A model generated the notes under the pieces. The model saw only the letters and a program-made list of their open reading frames with translations. It made no database searches and was not told the origin of the DNA. From Luteibacter sp. (GTDB lineage: Bacteria; Pseudomonadota; Gammaproteobacteria; Xanthomonadales; Rhodanobacteraceae), in NCBI RefSeq assembly GCF_009912395.1, contig NZ_WNDO01000020.1, forward strand, positions 83,255-107,254: DNA of 24,000 bases. Direction: 5' to 3'. This document shows, piece by piece, positions 2,854 to 22,063 of the stretch (positions are counted from its first letter, which is position 1; each line of letters starts with the position of its first letter). A program made the position numbers and the translations under genes.

Positions 2854-3926
2854 ATGAGCACCCTGCCCTGGCTCCATCCCGATCGCGTGGCCCTCATCGA
2901 GAAGGGCCTGTCCGAGCGAATCATGATCCTCGACGGCGGCATGGGCACCATGCTGCAAGGACACCGACTGGACGAAGCCGGCTATCGCGGTGACCGCTTC
3001 GCCGGCGGTCACGACAGCCTGCACGATCACGACCATCCGGGTGAGTGCAACCTCAAGGGCAACAACGACCTGCTGCTGATCACCCAGCCGGACATCATCC
3101 GCGGTGTGCACGAGGCCTACCTGGAAGCGGGGGCCGACTTCATCGAGACGAACACCTTCAACGCCACGCGCGTCAGCCAGGCCGATTACCACCTGGAACA
3201 CCTAGTGCCGGAGCTGAATCGCGACGGCGCGCGCATCGCCCGCGAGGCCTGCGACGCGATGACGGCAAAAACGCCGGATCGCCCGCGCTTCGTCATCGGC
3301 GTGCTCGGTCCGACCAGCCGCACGGCATCGATCTCGCCCGACGTGAACGATCCTGGCTTCCGCAACATCGACTTCGAAACGCTGAAGGCCAACTACATCG
3401 AATCGGCCCGCGCCCTGATCGAGGGTGGCGCGGATACGATCATGGTCGAGACCATCTTCGACACGCTCAACGCCAAGGCCGCGCTGTTCGCGCTGTCCGA
3501 ACTGTTCGACGAACTCGGTGCACGCGTGCCGGTGATGATCTCCGGCACCATCACCGATCGCTCCGGCCGTACGCTATCGGGACAGACAGCTGAAGCGTTC
3601 TTCTACTCGGTGGAACACATCCGCCCGCTGTCCGTGGGACTGAATTGCGCGCTCGGCGCGGAAGACCTTCGTCCCCACGTGCAGATGCTGGCCCGCATCG
3701 CGAACGCGGCGGTAAGCACCCACCCCAACGCCGGCCTGCCCAACGCCTTCGGCGAATACGACGAAACACCCGAAAGCATGGCCTCGACGATCCGCGATTT
3801 CGCCGCCAGCGGCCTGATCAACATCGTTGGTGGCTGTTGTGGCACCACGCCCGCCCATATCGCGGCTATCGCCGCGGCCGTGGCGCCCTATCCGCCGCGC
3901 GTCCGCCAGGCCACCGACCAAGCCGC

Positions 3927-3930
<4 letters not shown>
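2854..3930 (+). CDS. metH: Methionine synthase, homocysteine S-methyltransferase domain protein (split MetH, part 1), 358 aa
   Basis: [18 protein letters not shown], and the Zn-ligand cysteines in GLNCALG and [15 protein letters not shown] lies 7 nt upstream of the ATG. The TGA stop overlaps the next start (ATGA at 3927-3930). Confidence 0.92.
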
Positions 3931-6620
<2,690 letters not shown>

Positions 6621-7161: not shown

Positions 7162-7190
7162 ATTGTACGTAGATGACAAGGGGGGGTCAA
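7162..7190 (-). promoter_or_regulatory. Sigma70-type promoter of tRNA-Val: TTGACC-17 bp-TACAAT
   Basis: On the minus strand the -35 TTGACC is at 7190-7185, the spacer is 17 bp, and the -10 TACAAT is at 7167-7162. A GC-rich discriminator GGCGCGC follows, and the mature tRNA 5' end lies 12 nt after the -10. Confidence 0.65.
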
Positions 7191-7197
7191 TACTTTC

Positions 7198-7797
7198 TCA
7201 GCTGGCCGTGCAGACCGCGCTGACGGCCAACTTGGTGCTCGCGACCGACCCAGAGACACCCAACGCGATCCTGGCCCCGGGAACATCCGACGTATTCACG
7301 CCGTTGCCCGTCTTGGTGCCGGCCAACCGGGCGCAGGCGACCATGTTCATCGCCGTACGCGTGCCATTGGGAACAGGCAGCCCCGTCTGACCGAACGTGA
7401 CAATGTTGCCATCGGTGGCCTGGACGGACACGTTGGTCTGTGCCGGCCCTACCCGCAACAAGACCATGCCCGCTGTGGAGGCGTTGTAGGCCTGGTTGGC
7501 CCCCGACGCCGAGGCGTTATACGCATAGACGATGTACCCGGCGTCATAGTTCACGCCACTGGTATCGCAGGACGTACCGGTCGAGCTACGGCAGATCGAG
7601 ACGAACTGATGCCTGTTCGCCGCCTCGGCCCTCGCGAACTGCATATCGCCGATGATGCTGTTCACCACGCTGCTCACGTAACTCTTTCGCGTGACGGTGC
7701 GCAGCGTCGGAACGGCGATGGCCAACAGCACCGCGATCACCACGATGACGACCATGAGCTCCAGCAGCGTGAAACCACGGTGCAGCCGGCCTTTCAT
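7198..7797 (-). CDS. fimT: GspH/FimT-family type IV minor pilin (pseudopilin-like)
   Basis: Prepilin leader MKGRLHRG|FTLLELMVVIVVIAVLLAIAVP, followed by a GspH-like body (DMQFARAEA). The ATG at 7797 overlaps the pilE stop by 1 nt (TGATG). The alternative ATG is at 7806. Confidence 0.8.
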   Translation of the reverse strand: MKGRLHRGFTLLELMVVIVVIAVLLAIAVPTLRTVTRKSYVSSVVNSIIGDMQFARAEAANRHQFVSICRSSTGTSCDTSGVNYDAGYIVYAYNASASGANQAYNASTAGMVLLRVGPAQTNVSVQATDGNIVTFGQTGLPVPNGTRTAMNMVACARLAGTKTGNGVNTSDVPGARIALGVSGSVASTKLAVSAVCTAS

Positions 7798-8222
7798 CAC
7801 CAGCACCGTCCGTTGGACGTCGTACCGGACTGGGATTTCACGCCGATCGAATCCAGTGTGAGGTTGCCGCAGACGTCGGATTTCTGGGCGAGCAGCGGCG
7901 CAGCGGTGAGCACGTAGCCCGTGGAGAGCGAACCGCCTGTCGGCGCCGCAATACTCACCTGGTAGTAGCCGTTCACGCTAGTGTCACTGGCGAATTTGAG
8001 ATCCGTGGTCATGCTCGCGGCGTATTTGTTATACGTAGCGTAGTAGCGCTCCTGCGCCGTCGCCGTGCGCAACAGCAGCTCCTGCCCCTCGCCTCGGCGC
8101 GCGCGGTACGTATAGCGCGTGTACTGGGGATAGGCGATGACGACAAGCACGGCGGCGACCGCCACGACGATCATCAACTCGATCAGGGTGAAACCAAGGA
8201 TTCGAGGTCCGAATCGACGCAT
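7797..8222 (-). CDS. pilE: Type IV pilus minor pilin PilE-like
   Basis: MRRFGPRILG|FTLIELMIVVAVAAVLVVIAYPQYTRYTYRARRGEGQELL...AQERYY is the PilE-type signature. A GGAG lies 10 nt upstream of ATG 8222. ATG 8249 would overlap the pilY1 end. Confidence 0.85.
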   Translation of the reverse strand: MRRFGPRILGFTLIELMIVVAVAAVLVVIAYPQYTRYTYRARRGEGQELLLRTATAQERYYATYNKYAASMTTDLKFASDTSVNGYYQVSIAAPTGGSLSTGYVLTAAPLLAQKSDVCGNLTLDSIGVKSQSGTTSNGRCW

Positions 8223-8238
8223 GCGATGGTTGCTCCGA

Positions 8239-11200
8239 TCAGTAAGCATTGTTCAGCTCCCGCCACGAACGCCGGCGCCAGATGGCGTCACCGATGTTGA
8301 AGGTGCCCGCCGGATTGCCGCTGCTGTCTGTGATGGTAAGGCCCGGCAACGCGATCTTACCGCCACCGACTGCCGTGGCCGCGGGCAATGCGCCGGTCAC
8401 CGGGACATTGCTCACTCGTACGCCCGCCTGCGTGAAACCTGCGCCCAGGTTGGCGGAACCCACGTTCACGCCACTGGCCGCTCCGCCGGTACCCGCATCG
8501 ACCACCATGATCGCTCCCTTGCGGACGGGTGCACAGGGGTCGGTGCTGCCCGGGATAAGCGACGTGATGATGGCGCGACCGCTGTCGAACAGAGCCGTGG
8601 CGTCGACGACCACCCGCTCTCCCTTGTTGGTCTGGCTACCTGGCGAGCCGGTGAACAGCGTGAAATACCAGCCGCCGATGCGGTTTCCGTTAGTGTCTGT
8701 AGCCGGCACAGGGTTATTCGTCAGGCCACGCACATTGTTGCTCTCGGTCAATGTCTGCGCCACCAGGGGCGTCGAGCCTTCGATGACCGGGGATGTGCTT
8801 CCAGGCCCACCGTCGCGAATACCGTAGACGTACTGCGTGCCGGCGCTGTTGTCCGCCGTGTTGTCGCTACCCCCCAGGTACTTGCCGGTACCGAAGATCA
8901 CCATGAAATAAGACGATGTCGGATTGGCGAACAGGCGAGGCATCACCGTGATCGGACGCCCTCCCTGATTGGACGAGTAGAACGCCAGCGACACGCTCCA
9001 CTTCGATGAATCGCTGTTGGAAAGATCGAAGCGCCACAGGTTGCCGCGGAGATCGCCTGCGAATGCCACATCGTCGATCTGGTCGTTGTCATAGTCGCCA
9101 AGCACGGGCGACGACAGACCGTAGCTGATGATTTTCCCGGACACGCCCGAAACACTCGTCGGTGTGACCAGCTCCCGGATCACGGCGCCGGTCTGTGCGT
9201 CAAGGACGAACAACGAACTTTGAGTACGGGTGGAAGCCGGATCGTTCGCGTACGTCGAATAAGGTGCCGCGCCCGTCGCCTGGGGAAAGTAACCAGACGG
9301 CACGAGGACAACCCACTTGCCGTTCGCCAGGCGACCAATGTTGGGCTTGCCATAGGTGTAACCCAGGTTCGCACCCACGGTAGCGCCGGTCGAATCGGTA
9401 CTGGTATTCGTGAACTCCCAAAGCACCTTGGCGCCGGCGTTGGCCTCGCTCGCCGAGGCATCCGTGATGTCCAGCGCATAGATACCGCGCCCTCCCAGGC
9501 GAAGGCCACCTACCAGAATGGAGTGCCAGCCCTGGTTGCTGCCCGTACTGAAGAACACATCCCTGACCACGGGTGTGGCGTCTACGGTCGGAACGAAAGT
9601 GAAGTCGGAACGCGGAGTCAGGTAGTTCAGTTTGTCGTACACGCTAAACGGGACATAGGCCCAACGCTCCGCACCGGGCGACGGCGTGACGTCGACAGAA
9701 TCCGCCGATGTGGCGCTGGTCGTGGCATCGAAGGCGTGCAACATACCGTCGTTGGCGCCTACGTAGATCGTGGGTGCCCGTTTGGCATGATCGGAGACGA
9801 ACTTCTCATAGCTGTACTTGAGAGCGGTACCGTCTGCCGTCAGCGTCGCTTCGGGCGATCCGGTCGGGAAGGTATCGGTATATCCACTGGCCGGATAAGC
9901 GACGTAGACCGACTGCGAATTGATGATCGCACCCAGCGTGGAGGTACGGCGACGGAACGTGGTGCCTTCCTTGCTGGCATCGCCTCGCAGGTAGGCAACC
10001 TTGTTGGCTCCGCTGCTGGCGCTGTTGAAACTCGCATCGACCCCGTTCATCGCGGTGGAGATGTTCGTCCAGCGGAAGGCCGTGCCATTCCCCGCATCCG
10101 GCGCCGTGCTGGTAAGGATCACGCGCGTGTCCGTGCCCTTGGCGCGCGAGGTCAGCAGATCGCCCGCACTCCACAGCTGGCGCCCGATGGTTCCGTCGGC
10201 GCCAACCAGGTTGGCCACCAGCGAACCGCTCCAGTTGGAACTGTCGAAGCCCGTCTGGTAGGTCACGCCCGCACCCGTCAGCACGGAGCTGCTCAACGCA
10301 CCCGCCACCGCGGACGTGCTACGGGAAATGATGCGTGCCAGCAATTGGTTCAGGGCGTTGCCGAGCGCGGCCGGATCGCGGGCGCTGAAGTACTGGCCAC
10401 GACTATTGATCGCGGAATGCCACGTGTCGTCGATGTCCGTCAGGTCACCGTTGCCGCTACCCGTCGGCTGCGGCCAGGACACCGTACCGGCGCGAAGACC
10501 GGCATAGTCACCGGGAAAATTGAGTGCACCGTCGATGCCCAGCGCAATCATGAACTGCACGACGTGCGGCCAGCTCGCCGAGTCGTTCTTGGGATTGAAG
10601 TACAGCGAGGCCGGAGGTGTGCCCGTGCCGTCCCAGTTGACCGTATTGCCATTGGCATCGGTGTAATCCACGTACGAGGTCGGCACGCCCAGCTTGGGCT
10701 TCGTACCGTTCACGAAGTCGGGACGCAGGTTCGTCGCCCAGTAATGAAAAGCAATATCGGACAGGGTCGAGTACGACGTGTTCGGAACATTCGCGTAAAC
10801 GGCGGACAACGGATCCGAACTGCTGCCTGAGTAACTCACGCCATCAGGAAGGGTGAGCGCCATCCGCGTATTGAGCAGTTTCTTCTTGGTAGTAGCGTCC
10901 AGATCGCTGCCATTCCAGTAGCCGTCGGTCACGAGCAGGCTGTAGTTCAATCGACAGGTCAGCTCCATACCCGAGGACGTGGGGCCGATATTCGGCTCCC
11001 AGTAGGGATTGGTATTGTTGGTGACGCCGCTTCCATAGCCGAAGAGGTCACCCGCGCGATTGATCGCGACTCGGGTCGGCGTGCCGCCACTCGCCTTGAC
11101 CTGGTAAAGCCAGGTGAAGAAGTTGGTGCGGGCATCCCCCGTGAAGGCATCGAATGTGGTCTTACCCCTGCCGAGAACGTAATTTCCATCATTGAGGTTC

Positions 11201-11936
11201 TGGTAGACGACGCGAATGTTCGTACCGAGGCTACCGAACACATTGGCGATAGCCGAACGCGTCATCAGGTTGCGGGTACGATAGTACGAGTACCAGTTGG
11301 CGAAGTTCTGCTGGACGGTGCTCGACGCACTGTTGATATAGGTAACGCTGCATCTCGAGTCGCTACCGACGGAGGGACAGGTCCAGTAGAACCCGCCGCC
11401 ATTGGAATAGCCTGAGGCGTAATCGGAGATACTGAAAACACCGCCGCTGGTCGGTGCACGTCCCGATGTGGTGTTCGTACCGAAGCGATAGGTGAACGAT
11501 TGCGAAAGGTCGATCGTGCCACCACAGTTGGCCGCGTTGCTTCCCGGTTTGTTCGCGCAGACGCCGTCGTACCAGGCGCCCGTATAAGATGCGTTCTTGA
11601 ACCGCGAGAGGCCATCGGCCGACACGGGTGGCGTGTACGTAATCGCTGGATTGTAGTAAACGAAATTCGTCGTCGACGAATAGTAAAACCGCGAATCCTG
11701 GTCGTCATCCAGCGTATCCGGCAGTCCCGTCGAACCCATCGAACCCGAATCATCGAAGGTCACCGCGATATTGGGCGACACGGCTACCGTGAGATCCGGG
11801 GGGCCGTGCTCAGGTCGGTGGTGTAGTACACCGTGGCCGTCTGCGCACTCGTCGGCGCCGTCGAACCACCGAGCAAGCCGAGCGCCAGGGCCGTCAGCCC
11901 CATGCCGATGCGCGAATACTTGACCAGAAGCTTCAT
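8239..11936 (-). pseudogene. pilY1: PilY1 (type IV pilus tip adhesin / biogenesis factor), reading frame broken by a frameshift in a G6 run at 11798-11803
   Basis: ATG 11936 opens a 50-codon ORF, MKLLVKYSRIGMGLTALALGLLGGSTAPTSAQTATVYYTTDLSTAPRISR*, which is the signal peptide and stops at 11784-11786. The 1180-codon body (8239-11781) is in the -1 frame. It carries a vWA/MIDAS-like motif TFDDSGSMG and the C-terminal PilY1 propeller with the Asp-rich loop GDYDNDQIDDVAFAGDLRGNLWRFDL. One extra C (minus strand) would join them as ...DLSTAPPDLTVAVSPNIAVTFDDSGSM... Confidence 0.85.
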
Positions 11937-11940
11937 GGGT

Positions 11941-12567
11941 TCAGTCCGCCTTCGCGGCAAAGGTGGTTTCCAGCACGCGGATGGCGTTCTCGTTGTTACC
12001 CATACCGCGCGCCGTGATGCGATAGACGTGTCGGTTGGTGCTGGTATAGCCGGTGCCCGTGGCGCCGGTGGCGCCCGATTCGTGCTGCATGCCCGCGTTG
12101 GGCGGCAACTCGAGACCGAGATCTTCGATGATGTAGACCGGATTGTTCTTGAGGCCAAACGTGCCATCACCGGACGCAGCGGTGTAATCCACTGGCTGGT
12201 AGGTGGTGGCACCCGTGGTGACCCACCCCGTCGAACTGCGGAACGTCTGCACCGTCGCATTCGGCGGGTTGGCGGCATAGGCGTAGCAGGACGCAAGGGC
12301 ACCGGTGCCGCAAACCATGCGGGTGGCCGGGTCCGAACTCGCCCGCCACAGGCGCCACTCGGCGCCACGCAACGCGGATTCCGCGCTCCACTCCGCCAAC
12401 TGCGAATTGCGCAGTCCGCCAGCGAGCTTCTGCTGCAAGAGCGACGTTCCCGACGCGCTGATCGCCAGGATGGTGATCAACAGCAGGAAGATGAGCGCGG
12501 TGATCAACACGACGCCCCGCTGGCGGCGCGACGGAAGGAGATGCCTGGGAAGGTAACGATGATTCAT
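11941..12567 (-). CDS. pilX: Type IV pilus minor pilin PilX-like
   Basis: N-terminus RRQRGVVLITALIFLLLITILAISASGTSLLQQKLAG is the PilX N-terminal domain pattern. It sits between pilW and pilY1. Its stop is 4 nt before the pilY1 ATG. Confidence 0.8.
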   Translation of the reverse strand: MNHRYLPRHLLPSRRQRGVVLITALIFLLLITILAISASGTSLLQQKLAGGLRNSQLAEWSAESALRGAEWRLWRASSDPATRMVCGTGALASCYAYAANPPNATVQTFRSSTGWVTTGATTYQPVDYTAASGDGTFGLKNNPVYIIEDLGLELPPNAGMQHESGATGATGTGYTSTNRHVYRITARGMGNNENAIRVLETTFAAKAD

Positions 12568-12585
12568 GGCGTGATCGCTCGCCGC

Positions 12586-13926
12586 TTACGGGTTGTAGTT
12601 GCGCATCATCACCACCGTGCTGAACTGGCGGCGAATCATGGGTAGGGCAAAGCCCTGCGTCGCGGGCGAGATCCCCCCGGTTCCCCGCTGGTCGGGGGCG
12701 ACCGGCGTGGTGTTGCCCTCCGGGGAGTAGGCATAGGCGAGGTCGGGGCCCTGCAAGGTGTAGAGAGGGGTCTGGCCGTCCATCAGGATGTTCACCTCGA
12801 TGGTCTTCAGGGCGCGCCACAGGCATCCCATGTCCGTGGCCGTGGCACCCTGGGCCCCCGACGGGCATGGAATCGTGGCGCCCGCGCGCGAGTCGACATC
12901 GGCCGCGGACAGATAGTGCAACAGGCCATTCTGGTCTTCGACGCCGTAACGGAAGTCGAGACGTTCGACGCCACGGACGATTTCCTGGCAGGTCGCGCCG
13001 ATGCCACTGTCGCAGCGCATCAGGGCACCGGTCTTGATGCCGGTCGCCGTACCGTCGTCGCTCACAACCTGAAGGAAGTAGGTGACGGTACGAAAATCGG
13101 TGCTCAGACGAAACAGGCGCGGCGCCGATTGCGGCTTCAGCGCCCGCGGCGCGCTGAAATTGACCTTGTTGTCGCCTGGCACGAGGTTGTTGCTGCCGGT
13201 GGTCTGGAATATCTGTGCGGTGGAGCAATCGGCAAGCATGACGAGATCGCCGTCCTGGATACCGGTAGGGCTAAGTTCGCCCACCGAGGGCGAGGTATTA
13301 GGTACCAGGGTGATGTGATCGATCGTGCCATCGTTCTTCGGCACGATGACGCTGTTGCCGCCGATGGCCCAGCCGCGAGCGGAGTCCACATAGCGCATCT
13401 GGAACACCGCGCCGCCCATCACTCGCGACCCGACGTCGGTGCCCATCACCGGCACGCCCATGGCAGCGGTGGGCGGGCTGGAGGGCGTGCACGCGGCCAC
13501 CGTGCAATCGAATCCGCGCATGAAGAAGAACGAAGGCAGGTTGTAGGCGGCCGTTGGCTTGACCGGATACGGAGTGCCCCACGGAGTGGTGTTCTGCGGG
13601 AAGGTCAGGTTCATGGCCAGCACGCGAGGGGTACGCAGTGAATCGAGCGCGACGCCGCTGGTGGCCGCAAGGTTGGCGATACCTCCCGTGCTACTGCAGT
13701 ACTGTGCGCCGGCCATCTTCAGGTCGGCACTGATCCGGTTGATCGCATAGCGCCCCTCCTCCTGCAGACGGGCCATCTGGTTCTGCGCCCGATTGCTTGA
13801 CGAGGTGGACAGGAACAGGGTCACGATGCCCCCGGCGACGATAAGACCCAGCACCAGGGCGACCATGAGTTCGATCAAGGTCACGCCGCGCTGGCGGCGG
13901 TCGGTGGAAAGACGCGCCAGGATCAT
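12586..13926 (-). CDS. pilW: Type IV pilus assembly protein PilW (minor pilin), 446 aa
   Basis: MILARLSTDRRQRG|VTLIELMVALVLGLIVAGGIVTLFLSTSSSNRAQ. Its ATG overlaps the pilV stop (ATGA at 13923-13926). The upstream 106 codons of the ORF-track entry overlap pilV and are not used. Confidence 0.85.
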   Translation of the reverse strand: MILARLSTDRRQRGVTLIELMVALVLGLIVAGGIVTLFLSTSSSNRAQNQMARLQEEGRYAINRISADLKMAGAQYCSSTGGIANLAATSGVALDSLRTPRVLAMNLTFPQNTTPWGTPYPVKPTAAYNLPSFFFMRGFDCTVAACTPSSPPTAAMGVPVMGTDVGSRVMGGAVFQMRYVDSARGWAIGGNSVIVPKNDGTIDHITLVPNTSPSVGELSPTGIQDGDLVMLADCSTAQIFQTTGSNNLVPGDNKVNFSAPRALKPQSAPRLFRLSTDFRTVTYFLQVVSDDGTATGIKTGALMRCDSGIGATCQEIVRGVERLDFRYGVEDQNGLLHYLSAADVDSRAGATIPCPSGAQGATATDMGCLWRALKTIEVNILMDGQTPLYTLQGPDLAYAYSPEGNTTPVAPDQRGTGGISPATQGFALPMIRRQFSTVVMMRNYNP

Positions 13927-14453
13927 GGTTCGAACACCCAGGTGAAGGATTGCAGGTTGCTGGACGTCGTCTTGTCGTCCCCGCCGGTGAAGCCACGCTC
14001 CGCCCAGGTAATCGACATCGTGCAGGTACCGCTGTAGGGCGGCCGCATGGCGTACTGGCCGGTCGGGTCGAAGCCGCTGGCCTTGACGCAGCTGATGGAT
14101 GTCGTGCCGACGGCCGGCAACTGCTGACTCCACAGGATCTGGTCGCGCAGCGCTACGTCGGCCGGTTTGCAGCCGTTGGCCGCGTCGCAGGCAGGAGCGT
14201 TTCCGGTGATCGGATACTTGGCGCTGTCGTAGCTGGCGTTCCACAAACCGACAGGGTTCGCCCGCATGCGGTCGACCATATTGTTAGCCAGGAAGGTCAC
14301 CTGCGTCCGCACGTAGGCTGTGGTGTTGGCGCGGGTGGCGGTGATCATCAGCCCACCCAGGCCGATCAGGCCGATCGTGAAGATCAGCACCGCGACCAGC
14401 ACCTCGATGAGCGACACGCCACGCTGGACGCGCGGCGACGGAATGCGATTCAC
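13923..14453 (-). CDS. pilV: Type IV pilus modification/minor pilin protein PilV
   Basis: MNRIPSPRVQRG|VSLIEVLVAVLIFTIGLIGLGGLMITATRAN is the PilV N-terminus. GTG start at 14453, with GGGGGA 6 nt upstream. First gene of the operon. Confidence 0.85.
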   Translation of the reverse strand: MNRIPSPRVQRGVSLIEVLVAVLIFTIGLIGLGGLMITATRANTTAYVRTQVTFLANNMVDRMRANPVGLWNASYDSAKYPITGNAPACDAANGCKPADVALRDQILWSQQLPAVGTTSISCVKASGFDPTGQYAMRPPYSGTCTMSITWAERGFTGGDDKTTSSNLQSFTWVFEP

Positions 14454-15318: not shown

Positions 15319-15879
15319 TCAACGGGAGGACGAGCGCCACTCCCGCGCCAACATGGCGAAAATCATGTCATCGACCCATTCCCCGCGGAAGAAGTAGCTT
15401 TCGACATGATGGGCCTCCTGACGAAACCCCAGGGACCGCAGCAGCGCGATGCTGGCCACGTTGCGCGGATCGACCGAGCCGACCGCACGGCGATATCCCC
15501 AGTCACCGAACGCGGCGTCGAGCATGGCGCTCATCGCCTCGCGCGCGTAGCCCCGCCCCTGCCGGTCGGGACGCAGGGAGACACCGAACTCGATCGCGTC
15601 ATCGGTACTCGCGGGGAAATGCACGCCGAGGTCACCCAGCAACTCGCCGGTTTCCCTGTCGCGTACGGCGAGCTGCGCCCAGCTGTCGGGCTCCCGGAAG
15701 CCTAGCGAGGACTGCTCCGCGATGAACCGTTCCGCCTCGGCGATATCGGCCGGACGCCAGCCCTGGTATCGGGCGACCGCATCGTCACCCCGATACGCGA
15801 AGAGCGTGTGCGCGTCGTCGGGTACGAGGGCGTCGAGATGAAGTCGGGTCGTGCGGAAAGTGTCTCGCGTTGCGTCCAT
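15319..15879 (-). CDS. GNAT-family N-acetyltransferase (RimJ/RimL-like), 186 aa
   Basis: LRPDRQGRGYAREAMSAMLDAAF (acetyl-CoA motif A, Q/RxxGxG/A) and VDPRNVASIALLRSLGFRQE. AAAGG lies 7 nt upstream of ATG 15879. Confidence 0.88.
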   Translation of the reverse strand: MDATRDTFRTTRLHLDALVPDDAHTLFAYRGDDAVARYQGWRPADIAEAERFIAEQSSLGFREPDSWAQLAVRDRETGELLGDLGVHFPASTDDAIEFGVSLRPDRQGRGYAREAMSAMLDAAFGDWGYRRAVGSVDPRNVASIALLRSLGFRQEAHHVESYFFRGEWVDDMIFAMLAREWRSSSR

Positions 15880-16042
15880 GTGCAAGCCTTTGGCCGAAAG
15901 CGCTGAAATTAGCACTTACCTGCCGGCCCGCGATATGCGTCGTATCTCTTTACGCAACCGTTACCCGGAAAGCGCCCCATGCGGGCAGCTTTTTTACGGG
16001 ACGCCCCCGGATACTGGACTCCCTTCCCCACGAGTCGCCCCG

Positions 16043-16477
16043 ATGTCGATCGTCGTCATCACCGGTCCATGCCAAACCCACCCCTCCCACCTCGCCGAGG
16101 GCGCCATGTGGCGGTTGTGGGAGCGCGCGCAGGCGGCCGGCGTGGACTTGCTCTGGCGTCCGTGCAACGACTTCATCGAACTGACCGGTCACCTGGATCG
16201 CTCGCCCATCGACCACGCCGAACTGGTGCTGCTGGATGTGGATGCCGCCGATGTTCCCGAAGCCGAAGTGGTACCGCTTCGCCGGGCGCTGGCCGCACTC
16301 GACGTCCCCTACATCGAGATCCACGACGGCAGCGACGAGACCGATGCCTCGATGCTTGCTCCAGGACACCCCTCGCTGGTCAGCGTAGTGGTGCCGGGTA
16401 ACGCCATGGCCGGTTACGACATGGCGCTGTCCATCGGCCTGCGCTACCTCGGCGCCCAGACCCGCATGGCTGCCTGA
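16043..16477 (+). CDS. Type II 3-dehydroquinase (AroQ)-fold-like protein with degenerate catalytic motifs, 144 aa
   Basis: By-eye colinearity with AroQ: IVVITGP vs LVLNGPN, PCNDFIELTGHL vs QSNxEGelid, VPYIEIHDGS vs PxiEVHlSN, VPGNAMAGYDMAL vs GfGxxgYxlAL. The NPGAxTHTS and RExFR motifs are absent. The start is uncertain because the SD is weak. Confidence 0.55.
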   Translation: MSIVVITGPCQTHPSHLAEGAMWRLWERAQAAGVDLLWRPCNDFIELTGHLDRSPIDHAELVLLDVDAADVPEAEVVPLRRALAALDVPYIEIHDGSDETDASMLAPGHPSLVSVVVPGNAMAGYDMALSIGLRYLGAQTRMAA

Positions 16478-16496
16478 CCGACGTCAGGCCTTTTCC
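16472..16496 (+). terminator. Hairpin spanning both convergent stop codons (AroQ-like / tetR)
   Basis: GCCTGAC (16472-16478), loop CGAC, GTCAGGC (16483-16489), followed by CTTTTCC on the plus strand. There is no T run on the minus strand. Confidence 0.45.
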
Positions 16497-17134
16497 TGGC
16501 GACGCCGCATCGCGGCTTCCGCCCCATCCACCAGCAGCGTTACCGCGCTGGTGAATGCCTCCTCCGGATCCGCTTCGCTGACCGATACCCACCCCGCGCT
16601 GAGCAAGGGGTGGTTGGTCGCGTCCGGCATGTCGGCCGAGACGACACGCGTTGGCTCGGCCTGTTCTTCCAGCACCCAGCCGACCACGAAACGCCCGGTC
16701 GCCATCATCAGACGCACGGCTTCTTCAGCCTCGAAACCTGCCGCTCGCAAGAAGACCATCTTGGCCTCGATACCGCTGAAGTCACCGGGTCGGGGGCGGG
16801 TACCCGCATGAAGGCGGGCACCATCGCGATAGGCCAGCAGCGACCGCCTGAAACTCAGCGCATTGGCCAGGAACCACGTCCGCCAGTCGGTGCCGGATGT
16901 CGGCGGCGGCGAATCGTGATGCTCGCGCCCTATCCGCTCGGCCATGGCCTCGAGCAAGGCCTCCTTGCTGGGAAAGTGCCAGTAGAGGCTGGGTGAGCGC
17001 ACCCCGAGATACTCGGCAAGCCGACGCGTGGTGAGTGCGTCGATACCGATATCGTCGAGCAGAACCAGTGCTCCGCTCAGAACATCGTCCTTGCTGAGTC
17101 GCCGGGCGGGACGGGAGGTTTTGGTGTCAGCCAT
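16484..17134 (-). CDS. tetR: Tetracycline-repressor-type TetR (true TetR subfamily), 216 aa
   Basis: LTTRRLAEYLGVRSPSLYWHFPSKEALLEAMAERIGREHH and WRTWFLANALSFRRSLLAYRDGARLHAGTRP closely parallel TetR(B/D) [40 protein letters not shown] and [28 protein letters not shown]. It is divergent from a TetA-like pump. Confidence 0.92.
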   Translation of the reverse strand: MADTKTSRPARRLSKDDVLSGALVLLDDIGIDALTTRRLAEYLGVRSPSLYWHFPSKEALLEAMAERIGREHHDSPPPTSGTDWRTWFLANALSFRRSLLAYRDGARLHAGTRPRPGDFSGIEAKMVFLRAAGFEAEEAVRLMMATGRFVVGWVLEEQAEPTRVVSADMPDATNHPLLSAGWVSVSEADPEEAFTSAVTLLVDGAEAAMRRRQEKA

Positions 17135-17153
17135 ACCCTATCGATGATAGATA
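17135..17153. promoter_or_regulatory. tetO-like operator a: ACCCTATCGATGATAGATA
   Basis: Palindromic core CTATC-GAT-GATAG. Compare Tn10 tetO TCCCTATCAGTGATAGAGA. It directly abuts the tetR ATG (17134). Confidence 0.8.
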
Positions 17154-17170
17154 AAGTATGCCATGCTGTC

Positions 17171-17189
17171 TCCCTATCATTGATAGATA
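17171..17189. promoter_or_regulatory. tetO-like operator b: TCCCTATCATTGATAGATA
   Basis: Palindromic core CTATC-ATT-GATAG. It lies 5 nt upstream of the tetA ATG (17195). The centre-to-centre distance to operator a is 36 bp. Confidence 0.8.
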
Positions 17190-17194
17190 ACCGT

Positions 17195-18406
17195 ATGCGC
17201 CTCGCCATTCCCGTCATCCTCATCGCGATCCTGCTCGATGCCGTCGGGCTGGGTCTCATCATGCCGATCCTTCCCGGGCTGCTGCGGACCCTGGCACCTC
17301 CTGGCACGCAGACCTTTCACTACGGCGGGCTGCTGGCCGCCTACGCGCTGATGCAGTTCCTGTGCGCCCCGATCCTCGGGGCGCTGAGTGACCGCTTTGG
17401 CCGGCGCCCCATCTTGCTGCTGTCGATGATTGGCGCGGCCGCAGACTATGTGTTGATGGCCGTCGCCCCCTCCCTCGCCTGGCTGTATGTGGGACGCCTG
17501 ATCTCGGGGGCCACCGGCGCGAACATGGCCGTCGCCACCGCCTCGCTCACCGACCTGACGCCCCCGGAAGGACGTGCGCGCCGTTACGGCCAGCTGGGTG
17601 CGATGTTCGGCCTGGGCTTCATCGCCGGCCCCGTGCTGGGTGGCCTGCTCGGCGACTGGCACCTGCGCGCCCCGTTCGTCGCTGCCGCGATCCTCAATGG
17701 CGCGAATGCATTGCTGGCCCTGATCTTCCTGCCCGAATCCCGGGCGGCTGACGATCGCCCGGCGCTCTCGCTGAAAGCCGTCAATCCGTTCACCGCCCTG
17801 CACCGCCTTTCAGGTGGTCCCCGCCTGCTTCCGCTGGCCTGCGTGTTCGCCCTGATCAGCTTCGTGTCGCAAATACCCGGCACGCTCTGGATCCTCTACG
17901 GCCAGGATCGCCTCGCCTGGTCCCTGTCGGTGGCCGGATTGTCGCTTGCGGCGTACGGTGCCTGTCATGCCATGGCCCAGGCCGTCCTTACCGGTGCCGC
18001 GGTGAAGCGGCTTGGCGAGGCGGCCGCGCTGCTCGCCGGACTGGCTGCGGAAATCGTCGGCATGCTGCTCATGTCGATCGCGACACGTTCGTGGATTCCC
18101 TTCCTTGCGCTGCCGCTGTTTGCCGCCGGCGGCATGGCGATGCCCGCCCTGCAGGCACTGCTGTCACGCGAGGTAGACGACGCCAGGCAAGGAGAACTGC
18201 AAGGCGTGCTCGCCAGCGTCATCAGCCTGACGGGCATCGTGGGGCCATTGCTCGTCAGCGCCGTCTACGGGTGGTCACGCGGATGGTGGCCGGGCGCGAT
18301 CTGGGCGTTCGGCGCGATGTTCTACCTCCTGGTGTGGCCACTGCTCGCCTGGCGAGCACGAAGCACGCCGAACCCCGCGATGGCAGGCGCTCAGGGGGAG
18401 CGATAG
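17195..18406 (+). CDS. tetA: MFS tetracycline/H+ antiporter TetA-like (12-TM class), 403 aa
   Basis: MRLAIPVILIAILLDAVGLGLIMPILPGLLR ... YALMQFLCAPILGALSDRFGRRPILLLS ... GFIAGPVLGGLLG ... FLPES closely parallels TetA(A/B/G) (LDAVGIGLIMPVLPGLLR, GALSDRFGRRP). The ORF-track start at 17144 lies inside operator a and is rejected. Confidence 0.92.
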   Translation: MRLAIPVILIAILLDAVGLGLIMPILPGLLRTLAPPGTQTFHYGGLLAAYALMQFLCAPILGALSDRFGRRPILLLSMIGAAADYVLMAVAPSLAWLYVGRLISGATGANMAVATASLTDLTPPEGRARRYGQLGAMFGLGFIAGPVLGGLLGDWHLRAPFVAAAILNGANALLALIFLPESRAADDRPALSLKAVNPFTALHRLSGGPRLLPLACVFALISFVSQIPGTLWILYGQDRLAWSLSVAGLSLAAYGACHAMAQAVLTGAAVKRLGEAAALLAGLAAEIVGMLLMSIATRSWIPFLALPLFAAGGMAMPALQALLSREVDDARQGELQGVLASVISLTGIVGPLLVSAVYGWSRGWWPGAIWAFGAMFYLLVWPLLAWRARSTPNPAMAGAQGER

Positions 18407-18633
18407 GCCTCCAGGCTTGCGACTCGCGCGCAGACATCGTCGGCCACGTCGTCGAGCGACGCCGAACTTCCCAGCATCTCTCCCGCAGGCAAGCCGGTAC
18501 CCGGAAAGATGGCGTGCCAGACGGCACGCGAAGCGTCTTCGTCCTTCCCCGCGGTGACGGCAGCGAAGACGGAGCGCCCTGCCCGATCCTTGCAGCGAAG
18601 CCAGAGACGCACGGGTTTGGGCAAGGAATGCAT
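18391..18633 (-). CDS. Hypothetical small protein (80 aa); its 3' end overlaps the tetA 3' end by 16 nt
   Basis: ATG 18633 is preceded by GAGG (10 nt) and lies 11 nt after the upstream HTH gene stop. GC3 is high. I recognise no family. Confidence 0.4.
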   Translation of the reverse strand: MHSLPKPVRLWLRCKDRAGRSVFAAVTAGKDEDASRAVWHAIFPGTGLPAGEMLGSSASLDDVADDVCARVASLEAYRSP

Positions 18634-18644
18634 ATCCACGGACC

Positions 18645-18935
18645 TCAAAGACTCGATTCGTCGTCCAGCCATCCATGGCGCAGATTCATCGCCCACTCGA
18701 TGTCACGCGCCATACGGTCGTCGATATCGGCTCCTTCGATGATCTCGGCCAGATCGAAGGGATGGATGCCCAGCGAAAGAGCCTGCGCGCCGATGCTGGA
18801 AGCGCCCTCCCGGCGCAGCTCGTCCAGGATCACCCCAAGCCTGGCGCGGCGGAGCAATGGGAGATCCTCGTGATGGAAGGGTTTGGTCACCTGTCCGAGT
18901 CCCCCTTGCGCTGGCTCGTTCAGGTGATAACGCAA
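18645..18935 (-). CDS. Small HTH (XRE/phage-repressor-like) protein; start uncertain (TTG 18935 or GTG 18890)
   Basis: The C-terminal part IGAQALSLGIHPFDLAEIIEGADIDDRMARDIEWAMNLRHGWLDDE resembles the HTH plus the xxLExALxLxxGWLD ending of CI/XRE-type N-terminal domains. Confidence 0.5.
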   Translation of the reverse strand: MRYHLNEPAQGGLGQVTKPFHHEDLPLLRRARLGVILDELRREGASSIGAQALSLGIHPFDLAEIIEGADIDDRMARDIEWAMNLRHGWLDDESSL

Positions 18936-19100
18936 TCGGGAGAAAACCCCCTACGTCTCCAGGCCCAAAGAGCTGAACACTTACTGATGCCCGACGACCT
19001 TGTAGGAATGCCCCTACATGAATTCGGGAAGTGCCTGTCTAAGATGCCCCTGTCGCGACAGCTTCACGCGACATTGACAAAAGACAGGAACAGGGAATTC

Positions 19101-19727
19101 ATGAAAAAGCTGAGCTTGCTTGCCGCCACCGCCATAGCGGCACTCGTATCCATCTCCATCGCGCATGCGGACAACAGCGGCGTCTTCGTCCAGGCAGACG
19201 CAGGTCGCACGACCGTGTCCACCAGCAACGGAAAATTCTCCTTCGGAGTCTCCGGCGGTTATCGCTGGGCGGTCGCCCCCTCCTTCGCCCTCGGCGTGGA
19301 AGCCGGCTATGTGGATCTGGGACATCGCAGCAATACGTATAATTACAGCCTGAACTACGGCCCCCACAGCCTTTCGGGTACCTCACGCAATCGCGGTAGC
19401 GTCAAGGCGGCCACCTTGGGCGTCAACGCCAAGTGGGACATGTCCGAGACGTACTTCCTCATGCTGCGTGGCGGCATCGCACGCTACCGCCTGAACAACA
19501 CGACGAAGTCCTACAGCGTCTCCGATGGCGTGTCGTACAGCGATAGCGATAGCGATATACACAACAGCACCCGATACTACGTCGGCGCAGGCTTCGGTAT
19601 GCATCTGATGCCGAACCTGGACCTTCAGGTCACGTACGACCATTACGCCCCCCGTTACAGCACCTACGGCTATCACCTCTCCCCGAAGCTGAACTCCTGG
19701 TCCGCCGGCGTCGAATACCGCTTCTGA
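19101..19727 (+). CDS. Outer-membrane beta-barrel protein (OmpW/Opa-like, OMP_b-brl family), 208 aa
   Basis: Signal peptide MKKLSLLAATAIAALVSISIAHA|D. Alternating hydrophobic beta-strand pattern. C-terminal SAGVEYRF ends in the terminal Phe of the OMP sorting signal. Confidence 0.85.
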   Translation: MKKLSLLAATAIAALVSISIAHADNSGVFVQADAGRTTVSTSNGKFSFGVSGGYRWAVAPSFALGVEAGYVDLGHRSNTYNYSLNYGPHSLSGTSRNRGSVKAATLGVNAKWDMSETYFLMLRGGIARYRLNNTTKSYSVSDGVSYSDSDSDIHNSTRYYVGAGFGMHLMPNLDLQVTYDHYAPRYSTYGYHLSPKLNSWSAGVEYRF

Positions 19728-19750
19728 TCCACGCGCGGCACCCTGAAAGA

Positions 19751-19775
19751 CGACGGTCGGCTTGCCCGGCCGTCG
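19751..19775. terminator. Hairpin between the convergent OMP and beta-lactamase-family genes
   Basis: CGACGGTCGG / CCGGCCGTCG form an imperfect stem around CTTGC. No clear T run on either strand, so it may only be a stabilising or rho-related structure. Confidence 0.35.
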
Positions 19776-19782
19776 ATCCATC

Positions 19783-20760
19783 TCACTGCATGGTGGCGGC
19801 AACCAGCCCGCCTACTTCCGCGAAAAGCGCATCCGCTTGCTTGGACGACATCTTCGCGTCGCTCAACAGCAGCACGACGATCTTTTTCCGCCCATCGGGT
19901 GCGGTCACGATACCGATGTCGTTCCACGCGGTGAGATGATCGCGGGTCGAAGGACCGGTACCCGTCTTGTCGGCGATCTGGAAGCCGGCTGGCAGACCTG
20001 CGCGGATACGGTTCGGGATGACCTGGGCGGTCATCATGTCCAGCAATCGTTTCGTCGAGGTCGGCGACACCATGTCTCCCGCCTGGAGGCGACGCAGAAA
20101 CGCGCCGGCCGCATCGAGCGTCGTCGAATTGAGCTTGCCGGCCACGACCGCCGCGAAGCCCTTCGTCAGGCGACGATCCTGCTCGGCCTCCGAGATATCG
20201 TCGGGGTACTGTTCGCCCGGCTTGAGATCGTCAAGTACTCGGCCGAGATCACGCTCGCCCATGTCGATGCGCATCCCATGCACGCCCTTGCCTTCGAGAT
20301 AAGCCGTCACGACCTTGCCGCCGCCCAGGACACGGATCAGGGCATCCACCGCCGTGTTGTCGCTTTGCGTCACGGCCGCATGCAGCAATTCGTCGATCGT
20401 GAGATCGAGCGACCCCGACTTCAGGCGCACGCCCACCGAGGGAACCGCCGATCCGGGAACCACATCGGCGGGAGTCAGGTGCACCTTCTTGTCGAACGAC
20501 AGCTTGCCCGCGTCGATCTGGTCCAGCACAGCCGCCGCCACCGGCGCCTTGAACACGCTCATCATCAGGTAGCTGCGGTCGTCGTTCACCTTGATGGTGT
20601 CGCCCGTCACAGGATCCATGACGAGAATGCCCAGCGTACCGGGCCGGGCTTTCTTCGCCACCTGCTCGAGCGAGGTACGAAGGTCGACGGCGGACGTGGC
20701 GGCCAACGCCGTGCATGTCGCGAGCGAGAGGGACAGGCCACACAGGAGTTGCTTGATCAT
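19783..20760 (-). CDS. Class A beta-lactamase-family serine hydrolase, secreted, 325 aa
   Basis: Signal peptide MIKQLLCGLSLSLATCTALA. Motifs SVFK (SxxK), SDN and KTG are in class A order and spacing. The region between the putative omega-loop Glu (MGERDL) and NSTTLD carries roughly 25 extra residues. Confidence 0.85.
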   Translation of the reverse strand: MIKQLLCGLSLSLATCTALAATSAVDLRTSLEQVAKKARPGTLGILVMDPVTGDTIKVNDDRSYLMMSVFKAPVAAAVLDQIDAGKLSFDKKVHLTPADVVPGSAVPSVGVRLKSGSLDLTIDELLHAAVTQSDNTAVDALIRVLGGGKVVTAYLEGKGVHGMRIDMGERDLGRVLDDLKPGEQYPDDISEAEQDRRLTKGFAAVVAGKLNSTTLDAAGAFLRRLQAGDMVSPTSTKRLLDMMTAQVIPNRIRAGLPAGFQIADKTGTGPSTRDHLTAWNDIGIVTAPDGRKKIVVLLLSDAKMSSKQADALFAEVGGLVAATMQ

Positions 20761-20848
20761 CGGCAAAAATCCATTGACGGAAACCCGCATAGACTGGGTG
20801 GACGAATGGTCGCGCCAATGGCCGAATGCTGGCGATTTCCGGGCGCGC

Positions 20849-22063
20849 CTAACGTGGCGTCCGGATGGGGACACGACGACCGTAGGTAAAGCAACGCCAG
20901 ACCCATTCGAACGGCCCCATGTCGAAACGTGACATCCACAGCGGTGACCAGATCAGTTGAAGGCACCAGACGCCGACGACGATAGCCCACAACACCGGTC
21001 GATCGACCTGCCCCATCCAGCCACCACGACCGCCGTAGAAGATCGAGGTCATGATCAGCGACTGGGTCAAGTAGTTGGTGAACGCCATGCGCCCGGCCGC
21101 TGCGATCGGTGAAAGCAGGCGCGCGGCCCCGGCCCGTATGAGCAGGATGAGGCCCGCCGCGTAGCCGAGCGCAGCCCAGGGCGACACGATCAACTGAAGG
21201 AAGTGACCGCCGACGACCGGGGATGCGAGGATGTCCTGTTGCCAGGTCAACCAGCACACGAGCGCCAGGGCCAGGGCGCCGACGACAACCAGTACGCGAT
21301 AGCGACGATCAGGCCACGCGCCTGCGAAGAAACCATACTTAAACAAGGCCAGGCCGATCATCATCAACGCCAGGGTCGACGGCACCAGGTCGATATCGCC
21401 ACGCAACAGCTTCAGGTAGGCCTGCGTATTGGCCCGATACGCCCCTTCCCAGGATGACCTGGCGTCGTCGATCTGTGCCGCGATACGGGCCCTGTGTTCG
21501 GCCTGCATATTCGCCGCGTGCTCCGGCGTGACACTCGCGGTCGCCTGGGCAGGATGCGGATACAGATCAGGGAATTCCCGAACGGACATGGCCAGGAATA
21601 ACGCGAGACCCACCGTCATCAGCGTTCGCGGCTTCCACGAACGGCAAAAGAACATGATGCATCCCGTGACGGCATACAACGAAAGGATGTCACCCCACCA
21701 GATGCCGAACCCATGCAGCATGGCAAAGAAGAACAACGTGATGAGCCGCCGCCTGAGCAGGCGACCACGCACCGGATCGTTTCGTTCGCCTCCGACGAGA
21801 AACAACGACACACCGAACAGCATGGAAAACAGCGTCACGAACTTCTCGTGGAAGAACGCGTCCATGAACCAGTACGAGAAGGCAGTCAGGCCTTCGTTGG
21901 GAAACGGCCAGCTTTCCGGCTTGAGCGAGGCGGAGATAGGAACCGCGTAGCCATCCGCGTTGACCGCGAGAATGCCGAGGATTGCGATGCCACGAATCAG
22001 GTCGAGCGACTGGATTCGAAGCTTGGGTTTCGTAGAGGCGGCTTGCGCCGTGATGGATGACAT
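20849..22063 (-). CDS. DUF418 (YeiB-like) polytopic membrane protein, 404 aa
   Basis: SLDLIRGIAILGILAVN N-terminal motif, multiple TM segments, and C-terminal PFEWVWRCFTYG, which is characteristic of DUF418. It is co-directional with the beta-lactamase-family gene and 88 bp upstream of it. Confidence 0.85.
   Translation of the reverse strand: MSSITAQAASTKPKLRIQSLDLIRGIAILGILAVNADGYAVPISASLKPESWPFPNEGLTAFSYWFMDAFFHEKFVTLFSMLFGVSLFLVGGERNDPVRGRLLRRRLITLFFFAMLHGFGIWWGDILSLYAVTGCIMFFCRSWKPRTLMTVGLALFLAMSVREFPDLYPHPAQATASVTPEHAANMQAEHRARIAAQIDDARSSWEGAYRANTQAYLKLLRGDIDLVPSTLALMMIGLALFKYGFFAGAWPDRRYRVLVVVGALALALVCWLTWQQDILASPVVGGHFLQLIVSPWAALGYAAGLILLIRAGAARLLSPIAAAGRMAFTNYLTQSLIMTSIFYGGRGGWMGQVDRPVLWAIVVGVWCLQLIWSPLWMSRFDMGPFEWVWRCFTYGRRVPIRTPR

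Follow-up and report, generated by a model that had tools for sequence, protein, structure and literature searches.

A single base separates the pilY1 gene of this Luteibacter strain from an intact reading frame, and the missing base falls into a run of six C residues shortly behind the part of the gene that encodes the signal peptide. The question raised by this locus is whether such a lesion constitutes an ON/OFF switch of the kind known from Neisseria pilC, a low-rate switch of another type, a defect that is bypassed during expression, a plain loss of the gene, or an error in the assembled sequence. We addressed it by a computational analysis of the window (the whole 24-kb stretch of DNA in which the locus lies), its orthologues, and the available information on its origin.

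The divided pilY1 gene and its operon

Translation from the minus-strand ATG at 11936-11934 yields a 50-codon ORF with a signal peptide (MKLLVKYSRIGMGLTALALGLLGGSTAPTSAQTATVYYTTDLSTAPRISR*), which ends at a TAG (11786-11784) shortly past the coding-strand run CCCCCC (11803-11798), i.e. GGGGGG on the plus strand. The PilY1 body is encoded by an ORF of 1180 aa with a GTG start (8239..11781), which lies in the -1 frame relative to the leader ORF and reads ...GPPDLTVAVSPNIAVTFDDSGSM... in this frame. Addition of one base to the C6 run fuses both ORFs into a protein of 1232 aa with the seamless junction ...TTDLSTAPPDLTVAVSPNIAVTFDDSGSM..., the junction peptide of the repaired PilY1 being ...YYTTDLSTAPPDLTVAVSPNIAVTFDDSGSMGSTGLPDTLDDDQDSR. 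At the repaired junction (...TDLSTAPPDLTVAVSPNIAVTFDDSGSM), 31 residues are identical to P0007 as well as to the PilY1 of L093, a Logan contig from one of the closest relatives. The original prediction had described a 50-codon signal-peptide ORF that stops after the G6 run, a 1180-codon body in the -1 frame, and a 1-nt frameshift past the signal-peptide region that one added base would mend without a seam; sequence and translation confirm each of these points, and the repair indeed restores the orthologous protein.

The signal peptide is composed of a basic n-region (K2, K6, and R9), the hydrophobic core GMGLTALALGLLGG, and the c-region STAPTSA↓Q, with the cleavage site TSA↓Q read by eye from the translation. 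The frameshift is located 14 codons 3' of this likely cleavage site. Hence the N-terminal Sec signal peptide is not continuous with mature PilY1 and is held by the separate 50-codon ORF, while the body ORF begins at Val53 of the repaired protein and carries no hydrophobic leader. Although the body frame is open up to 11940, it contains no ATG, GTG, or TTG above 11781, so that an alternative start or signal peptide for this frame was rejected, and the product of the sequence as written would be leaderless from GTG 11781, in agreement with what had been predicted. The N-terminal region around the DDSGSM motif is presumably vWA-like, an assignment that we take over from the known PilY1 of P. aeruginosa. 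In public annotation, the body appears as an intact PilY1 (GAK28_03480; KAF1005228.1 / WP_291782005.1), and the 50-aa leader product is listed as hypothetical protein GAK28_03481; in GenBank and RefSeq, both products are assigned to a Luteibacter MAG, on a contig of 107 kb.

The identity of the gene is supported by a match of its beta-propeller to Pfam PF05567 (E=1.2e-55, profile positions 29-403 of 411) and by a match of query residues 589-1144 to PDB 3HX6, the C-terminal domain of P. aeruginosa PilY1 (E=2.1e-52), where the homologous beta-propeller is recognized at low identity and the C-terminal domain alone is covered. With NCBIfam NF040838, the protein reaches a score of 129 against a cutoff of 350, and is thus not an equivalog of that family. 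Its position between pilX and pilE is that expected of the PilY1/PilC family, with a gap of 4 nt between the pilX stop and the pilY1 ATG, and the same order of minor-pilin genes recurs in at least 10 related loci. As in the fimU-pilVWXY1E operon of P. aeruginosa, the genes are arranged in the order pilV-pilW-pilX-pilY1-pilE, and in P. aeruginosa PilY1, too, a DxSxS region comes after an N-terminal signal peptide; in contrast to that operon, a fimT/fimU-like gene stands at the 3' end in the window. To the best of our knowledge, no homopolymer control is known for P. aeruginosa pilY1. Downstream of the operon, the plus strand carries a LAB_N gene and a split metH. The coordinates of all features are compiled in Table 1.

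Table 1. Features of the split pilY1 locus and genes of the surrounding minor-pilin operon, in window coordinates
Feature	Position	Strand	Matches and remarks
Whole pilY1 locus, 5' fragment plus body, with 1-nt deficit	8239..11936	-	Pfam PF05567, PDB 3HX6
5' fragment: signal peptide and ~14 mature residues, then 4 out-of-frame codons and TAG	11784..11936	-	
Signal-peptide coding part, residues 1-32	11841..11936	-	Read off the translation; layout common to all close orthologues
C6 run (G6 on the plus strand), site of the missing base	11798..11803	.	Orthologues: 7 bases, xxC/G CCN CC
Premature TAG of the upstream frame, in the loop of the 5-bp hairpin CACGG-UAG-CCGUG	11784..11786	-	
pilY1 body, 1180 codons from GTG 11781	8239..11781	-	-1 frame, no signal peptide
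DDSGSM (DxSxS, MIDAS-like), 15 codons 3' of the frameshift	11737..11754	-	Motif in more than 70 related loci
pilX, 208 aa, intact	11941..12567	-	Pfam PilX_N, PilX; 92% aa identity to L093
pilW, 446 aa, intact	12586..13926	-	Pfam PilW, N_methyl; gene call in L092; dN/dS 0.05
pilV, 176 aa, intact	13923..14453	-	NCBIfam TIGR02523, 75.6 bits (cutoff 52.2); Pfam N_methyl
pilE-like minor pilin, 141-150 aa depending on start choice, intact	7797..8249	-	Pfam ComP_DUS, N_methyl
fimT/fimU-like minor pilin, 202 aa, intact, last operon gene	7198..7806	-	Pfam GspH, N_methyl

The break in comparison with orthologues

In each of the orthologues that we inspected, the two halves of pilY1 correspond to a single continuous protein, and the split is therefore not due to chance. 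A protein search returned full-length Luteibacter PilY1 proteins of 1208-1244 aa at 64-74% identity, all of them with a signal peptide, and the repaired PilY1 is 73-74% identical to full-length proteins of this genus. Since the protein homologue search itself peaked at 74% identity, the closest relatives, Logan contigs L093-L095, were reached via the PilX cluster. These contigs share 83% DNA identity with the window over 10.4 kb, and their PilY1 proteins are 89-90% identical at the amino acid level to the repaired window protein, and over residues 1-46 of the leader ORF, identity to the N-terminus of L093 PilY1 is about 91%. In addition, a scan of GTDB-representative genomes returned 80 loci from relatives of at most 62% identity, and the 25 residues before DDSGSM are in frame in more than 70 of them. 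A megablast search of the junction against a plasmid collection gave no match.

At the junction itself, the Rhodanobacteraceae loci read ...PP(D/E)LT..., and nearly all Luteibacter PilY1 proteins carry T-A-P-P-D-L-T, with T-A-T-P-D-L-T in L. aegosomatis. About 25 distinct orthologues were checked codon by codon, and their Pro-Pro codons are CCG CCG, CCA CCC, CCT CCC, or CCA CCG; none of them has a homopolymer at the junction, the longest C run being 4. Comparison of the tract among orthologous pilY1 genes, which had been proposed as a check, thus speaks against a shared run. When the first 210 nt were aligned with 8 relatives, a single 1-nt gap emerged, and it is confined to the window. A frameshift suspected in pilX of L. 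aegosomatis (178 aa in L081, 207 aa in L082) was dismissed, as the two DNA sequences are 100% identical and only the start-site call differs.

These comparisons also bear on the origin of the run. Luteibacter sp. W1I16 has ACG GCC CCG CCG GAT at this site, and removal of a single G gives exactly the ACG GCC CCC CGG AT of the window, so that the C6 run is possibly the product of the deletion, not its cause. By one route, the first Pro codon would have lost its third base, a G, A, or T (GCC CCG CCG GAT to GCC CCC CGG AT); by another, a synonymous change from CCG to CCC would have created C7, which then slipped to C6. Counted on both strands, GGGGGG occurs 6 times in the window compared with 21 ± 5.6 times in dinucleotide shuffles, meaning that G/C 6-runs are depleted and that the C6 run itself is within chance. 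Other 6-runs are found at 8870-8875 in the pilY1 body, at 12673-12678 in pilW (the further in-frame G6 already noted at about 12674), and at 19648-19653, all of them in intact ORFs, and an intergenic G7 lies at 7180-7186. As far as the sequences tell, the C6 run appears to be incidental and lineage-specific, and not an evolved contingency tract.

Provenance of the sequence and age of the lesion

The window probably represents the Lv19 Luteibacter bin from Lagria villosa eggs, sequenced by Illumina HiSeq 2x250 at 68x, as is suggested by the genus, the MAG status, the accession era, and an identical beetle-derived contig. According to the supplementary tables of beetle studies including mBio 2020, this bin (Lv19_1_2 = DBSCAN_round1_2, WNDO00000000) comprises 5.4 Mb at 68x, is 100% complete, and is assigned by GTDB to Luteibacter sp009912395. 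The Lv19 sample consisted of L. villosa egg clutches collected in 2015 (Illumina HiSeq 2x250; supplementary tables), and female accessory glands, sequenced on NovaSeq, yielded a conspecific bin, Lv20_10 (31x; supplementary tables). The identical contig is Logan contig L092 from run SRR27332975, whose 6568 bp match window positions 7549-14116 at 100% identity, the C6 run and both ORFs included. This run belongs to PRJNA1054523, a Lagriinae beetle metagenome project, and its sample and platform were assigned by inference. SRR27332975 also holds a second Luteibacter lineage in which pilY1 is intact (L091).

Homopolymers are classic sites of indel errors, and with a MAG rather than an isolate as the source, a pilY1 that is otherwise perfect, and a later beetle study that relied in part on Nanopore reads and cautions that errors can split genes in a long-read-only assembly, the true genome might be suspected to have 7 bases and an intact pilY1. 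We consider this very unlikely, because the MAG is most likely based on Illumina HiSeq 2x250 data at 68x, and k-mer assembly of another run, carried out independently, gives C6 inside 6568 bp at 100% identity, a degree of agreement that would be unexpected from raw noisy long reads. A 6-base run is well inside Illumina accuracy. Besides, the remaining genes of the 24 kb are intact and have full-length Pfam matches, and the three further 6-runs lie within intact ORFs. Agreement of two separate assemblies, data that appear to be short-read, and the intactness of the other genes together make a homopolymer miscall unlikely. Two caveats had accompanied the original prediction, and they fare differently: an assembly error is disfavoured by two concordant, apparently Illumina-based assemblies, whereas the evidence favours a fixed pseudogene. 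The C6 consensus comes from two assemblies of a single clone, whose similarity is too great for them to bear on the evolutionary stability of the frameshift.

The age of the lesion can be approached through substitution rates. Relative to L093, dN/dS is 0.068 for pilY1; codons 1-46, which precede the break, yield 0.067, and each third of the part behind the break falls between 0.05 and 0.07. The remaining five genes of the operon range from 0.05 to 0.13. The low values on both sides of the break indicate that purifying selection acted on both halves throughout essentially the whole period of divergence. No second lesion was detected in the 1180-codon pilY1 body, and together with the signature of purifying selection this implies that the frameshift is either very recent, or not real, or bypassed. 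From the sequence, the lack of secondary lesions would also fit an allele that is still in use.

Switching, bypass, or loss of PilY1

The locus had been likened to the phase-variable pilC of Neisseria, in which phase variation of pilC1 and pilC2 in N. gonorrhoeae and N. meningitidis was described by Jonsson et al. (1991, as cited in PMC5953494). Both systems concern a homologous PilC/PilY1 type IV pilus tip protein, and in both a G/C-run frameshift near the 5' end decides on the secreted protein. Unlike the hypermutable pilC tracts of G9-G20, which are a conserved feature of the pathogenic species, the run in the window has 6 nt, occurs in one lineage, and lies 3' of the signal-peptide coding region and not within it. 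It is shorter than the at least 9 nt usually set as the threshold for G/C tracts (PhasomeIt criterion; PMC5953494), and it is neither conserved nor variable in length among relatives, the one further copy of this allele, on contig L092, also having C6. In commensal Neisseria, pilC has no tract and shows no phase variation (PMC5953494). Furthermore, the exact forms of the C7 ON protein (1232 aa) and of a minus-2 protein (1231 aa) are absent from a collection of 15 billion proteins, and a search of JGI metagenome contigs with the exact flanks and a variable tract N{4,9} returned 0 matches. The analogy with pilC therefore extends to protein homology and to where the lesion lies, but it fails for the properties that define a contingency tract. 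With a run of 6 in place of G9-G20, orthologues devoid of a tract, no ON protein, and the OFF state in both assemblies, a Neisseria-like ON/OFF switch is not borne out.

A different precedent is bvgS of Bordetella pertussis, for which a C6/C7 phase switch was reported (Stibitz et al., 1989, as described in PMC1891110), and for which mixed alleles have been demonstrated in cultures (PMC1891110). The likeness extends to an in-ORF frameshift between C6 and C7 in a high-GC proteobacterium, as C7 in the window restores both the frame and the orthologous sequence. The polarity is reversed, however, bvgS being ON at C6 and OFF at C7 and pilY1 being OFF at C6, and bvgS encodes a sensor kinase unrelated to PilY1. 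Since bvgS switches at C6/C7, run length alone leaves room for reversibility. We thus considered a low-rate, bvgS-like switch between C6 (OFF) and C7 (ON) by slipped-strand mispairing, in which a piliated minority would be kept and the consensus would reflect whichever state is at an advantage on beetle eggs and glands. Several points speak for such a switch: there is a precedent with exactly C6/C7 (PMC1891110), the homologue PilC undergoes phase variation in pathogenic Neisseria (PMC5953494), the orthologous APPDLT would be regained with C7, and the leader and body ORFs are pristine (dN/dS 0.07). We nevertheless regard it as unlikely. No orthologue has C7 or any run longer than 4 at the site, so that nothing points to selection for a tract; in addition, 6-runs are depleted in the window, two separate sequencing projects both yielded the OFF state on assembly, and, as mentioned, the ON protein is missing from the 15-billion-protein collection. 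Tracts of 6-7 nt also slip less often, by orders of magnitude, than the G9-G20 tracts of genuine contingency loci, which weighs further against the switch. We regard as quite unlikely a nascent contingency locus, that is, a lineage-specific low-rate C6/C7 switch of the tip adhesin, perhaps combined with leaky -1 slippage of tRNA-Pro, with the OFF state favoured on host eggs and accessory glands. It would be convergent with Neisseria pilC and mechanistically similar to Bordetella bvgS, and, if reversible, it would represent a contingency switch arising de novo, which would be of modest interest.

Leaky expression is conceivable, because a -1 P-site slip of tRNA-Pro on C-CCC re-pairs perfectly and gives the wild-type APPD, as part of the conserved APPDLT. 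A bypass of this kind, or by slippage of RNA polymerase on the C6/G6 run, would have in its favour the minor Arg codon CGG in the A site (57/421 here), a small 5-bp hairpin with the TAG in its loop that starts 4 nt past the CGG, and intact ORFs on both sides. Nevertheless, we find it hardly credible: the in-phase heptamer C CCC CGG does not form the canonical slippery motif X XXY YYZ of programmed -1 frameshifting, no upstream Shine-Dalgarno-like element is visible, and no orthologue is frameshifted at this position, so that there is no conserved recoding site. A stable stimulatory RNA structure 3' of the site is lacking as well, since folding is no better than that of shuffled sequences (z = +1.10 over 98 nt and -0.17 over 38 nt). 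The 5-bp hairpin, the only 3' feature, is absent from relatives and was rejected as positive evidence for a frameshift stimulator, given that the RNA folds no more stably than the shuffles. To our knowledge, transcriptional slippage has been documented for long A/T runs and not for 6-nt G/C runs, which also counts against such a bypass.

It is therefore probable that the locus contains a genuine, recent null frameshift in pilY1, i.e. a fresh pseudogene that public annotation has missed. The original prediction had held that a uniform G6 with no variants would point to a simple pseudogene rather than a switch, and at the level of assembly consensus the data lean towards this outcome. We surmise that 1 nt was deleted very recently within the Ala-Pro-Pro codons, 14 residues past the signal peptide. 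Translation from ATG 11936 would then produce a 50-residue peptide that ends at TAG 11786-11784, and the 1180-codon body would be translated at most weakly, from GTG 11781. As a body product without a signal peptide has no access to the periplasm or the pilus tip, the allele would be null. Unless a paralogue at another locus of the genome takes over, the strain would accordingly neither assemble pili nor adhere or twitch in a PilY1-dependent manner. The picture is that of an ordinary frameshift pseudogene, with a single-base indel, an early stop, an intact downstream ORF and intact neighbours, and orthologues in frame; nothing essential differs, the twist being that the signal peptide is cut off and that the pieces are annotated as normal genes. 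On these grounds we infer loss of PilY1 function, the absence of reversion, and provenance from the microbiome of Lagria villosa beetles.

For annotation, a pseudogene means that the public 50-aa 'hypothetical protein' and the 'intact' 1180-aa PilY1 are one disrupted gene. If the allele is truly null, this Luteibacter probably lacks PilY1-dependent adhesion, twitching, and surface sensing, and the loss of these functions would bear on host colonisation and transmission. The main relevance of the finding lies in annotation and in the biology of a single symbiont community. It also calls for methodological caution, as a frameshift at a short G/C run beside a signal peptide mimics pilC phase variation, and it is the orthologues that reveal that no conserved tract is involved. 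The Luteibacter strain itself is abundant and apparently recurrent in the egg and gland microbiomes of Lagria villosa, and it is rich in biosynthetic gene clusters.

Variability of the pilus genes at a conserved site

The pilus genes pilV, pilW, pilX, pilY1, pilE and fimT were compared with the corresponding loci of L. anthropi (CP077072.1, L096), L. aegosomatis (CP095740.1, L081) and the closest relative, represented by a Logan contig (L093). All six are only 43-60% identical at the protein level to those of L. anthropi, whereas the flanking genes metH, LAB_N and GNAT reach 87-96% against the same genome. Judged from these sequences, the six genes from pilV to fimT form a hypervariable cassette residing at a conserved chromosomal site, and the discrepancy between flanks and pilus genes suggests that the cassette has been replaced or that the pilus tip complex has undergone diversifying evolution.

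In L. aegosomatis, an island of about 6.5 kb separates fimT from the LAB_N gene. Its gene content resembles that of a mobile element that has integrated beside the minor-pilin operon, and the island is absent from the window, from L. anthropi and from two other relatives (L083 and L084).

Features discussed, with coordinates in the window unless stated otherwise
Feature	Coordinates	Strand	Content
Split methionine synthase	2854-6620		two adjacent genes
G7 run	7180-7186		intergenic
Pilus cassette	7198-14453		pilV-pilW-pilX-pilY1-pilE-fimT
pilY1	8239-11936	minus	two separate CDSs in GenBank and RefSeq
Inverted repeat	11766-11778	minus	CACGG-TAG-CCGTG
Beta-barrel gene	18675-19727		outer-membrane protein
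L. aegosomatis island	15346-21547 (L081)		phage-type integrase, DUF4145 protein, helicase-like gene

Broken and intact pilY1

Both GenBank and RefSeq present the pilY1 halves as normal genes, namely a hypothetical protein of 50 aa and a PilC/PilY family protein of 1180 aa, and neither half carries a pseudogene flag in these records. The premature stop lies in the loop of a perfect 5-bp inverted repeat, the end of which forms the GTG start of the body ORF. This hairpin is absent from relatives, is no more stable than those of shuffled sequences and is probably coincidental.

Two Luteibacter lineages were recovered from the beetle metagenome run SRR27332975: one (contig L092) matches the window at 100% identity, including the disrupted pilY1, and the other (contig L091) shares 76% DNA identity across the locus and encodes an intact PilY1 (P0005). 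Their co-occurrence fits the contamination of 7.7% reported for Lv20_10, a bin probably of the window's species from Lagria villosa accessory glands.

Other features of the window

G/C runs of six are about 3.5-fold depleted in the whole window relative to shuffles. At the operon's 3' end, some 12 nt downstream of the stop codon of the fimT-like gene, lies the window's longest homopolymer, the G7 run.

Methionine synthase is encoded by a homocysteine S-methyltransferase gene (358 aa) and a second gene (about 899 aa) with pterin-binding, B12-binding and activation domains. A frameshift was rejected as the cause, and the split is regarded as natural, because the identical two-gene arrangement is common to all Luteibacter relatives compared.

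Public records disagree on the start of the beta-barrel gene (350 aa in GenBank, 208 aa in RefSeq), and its Pfam OMP_b-brl match covers residues 152-350 only.
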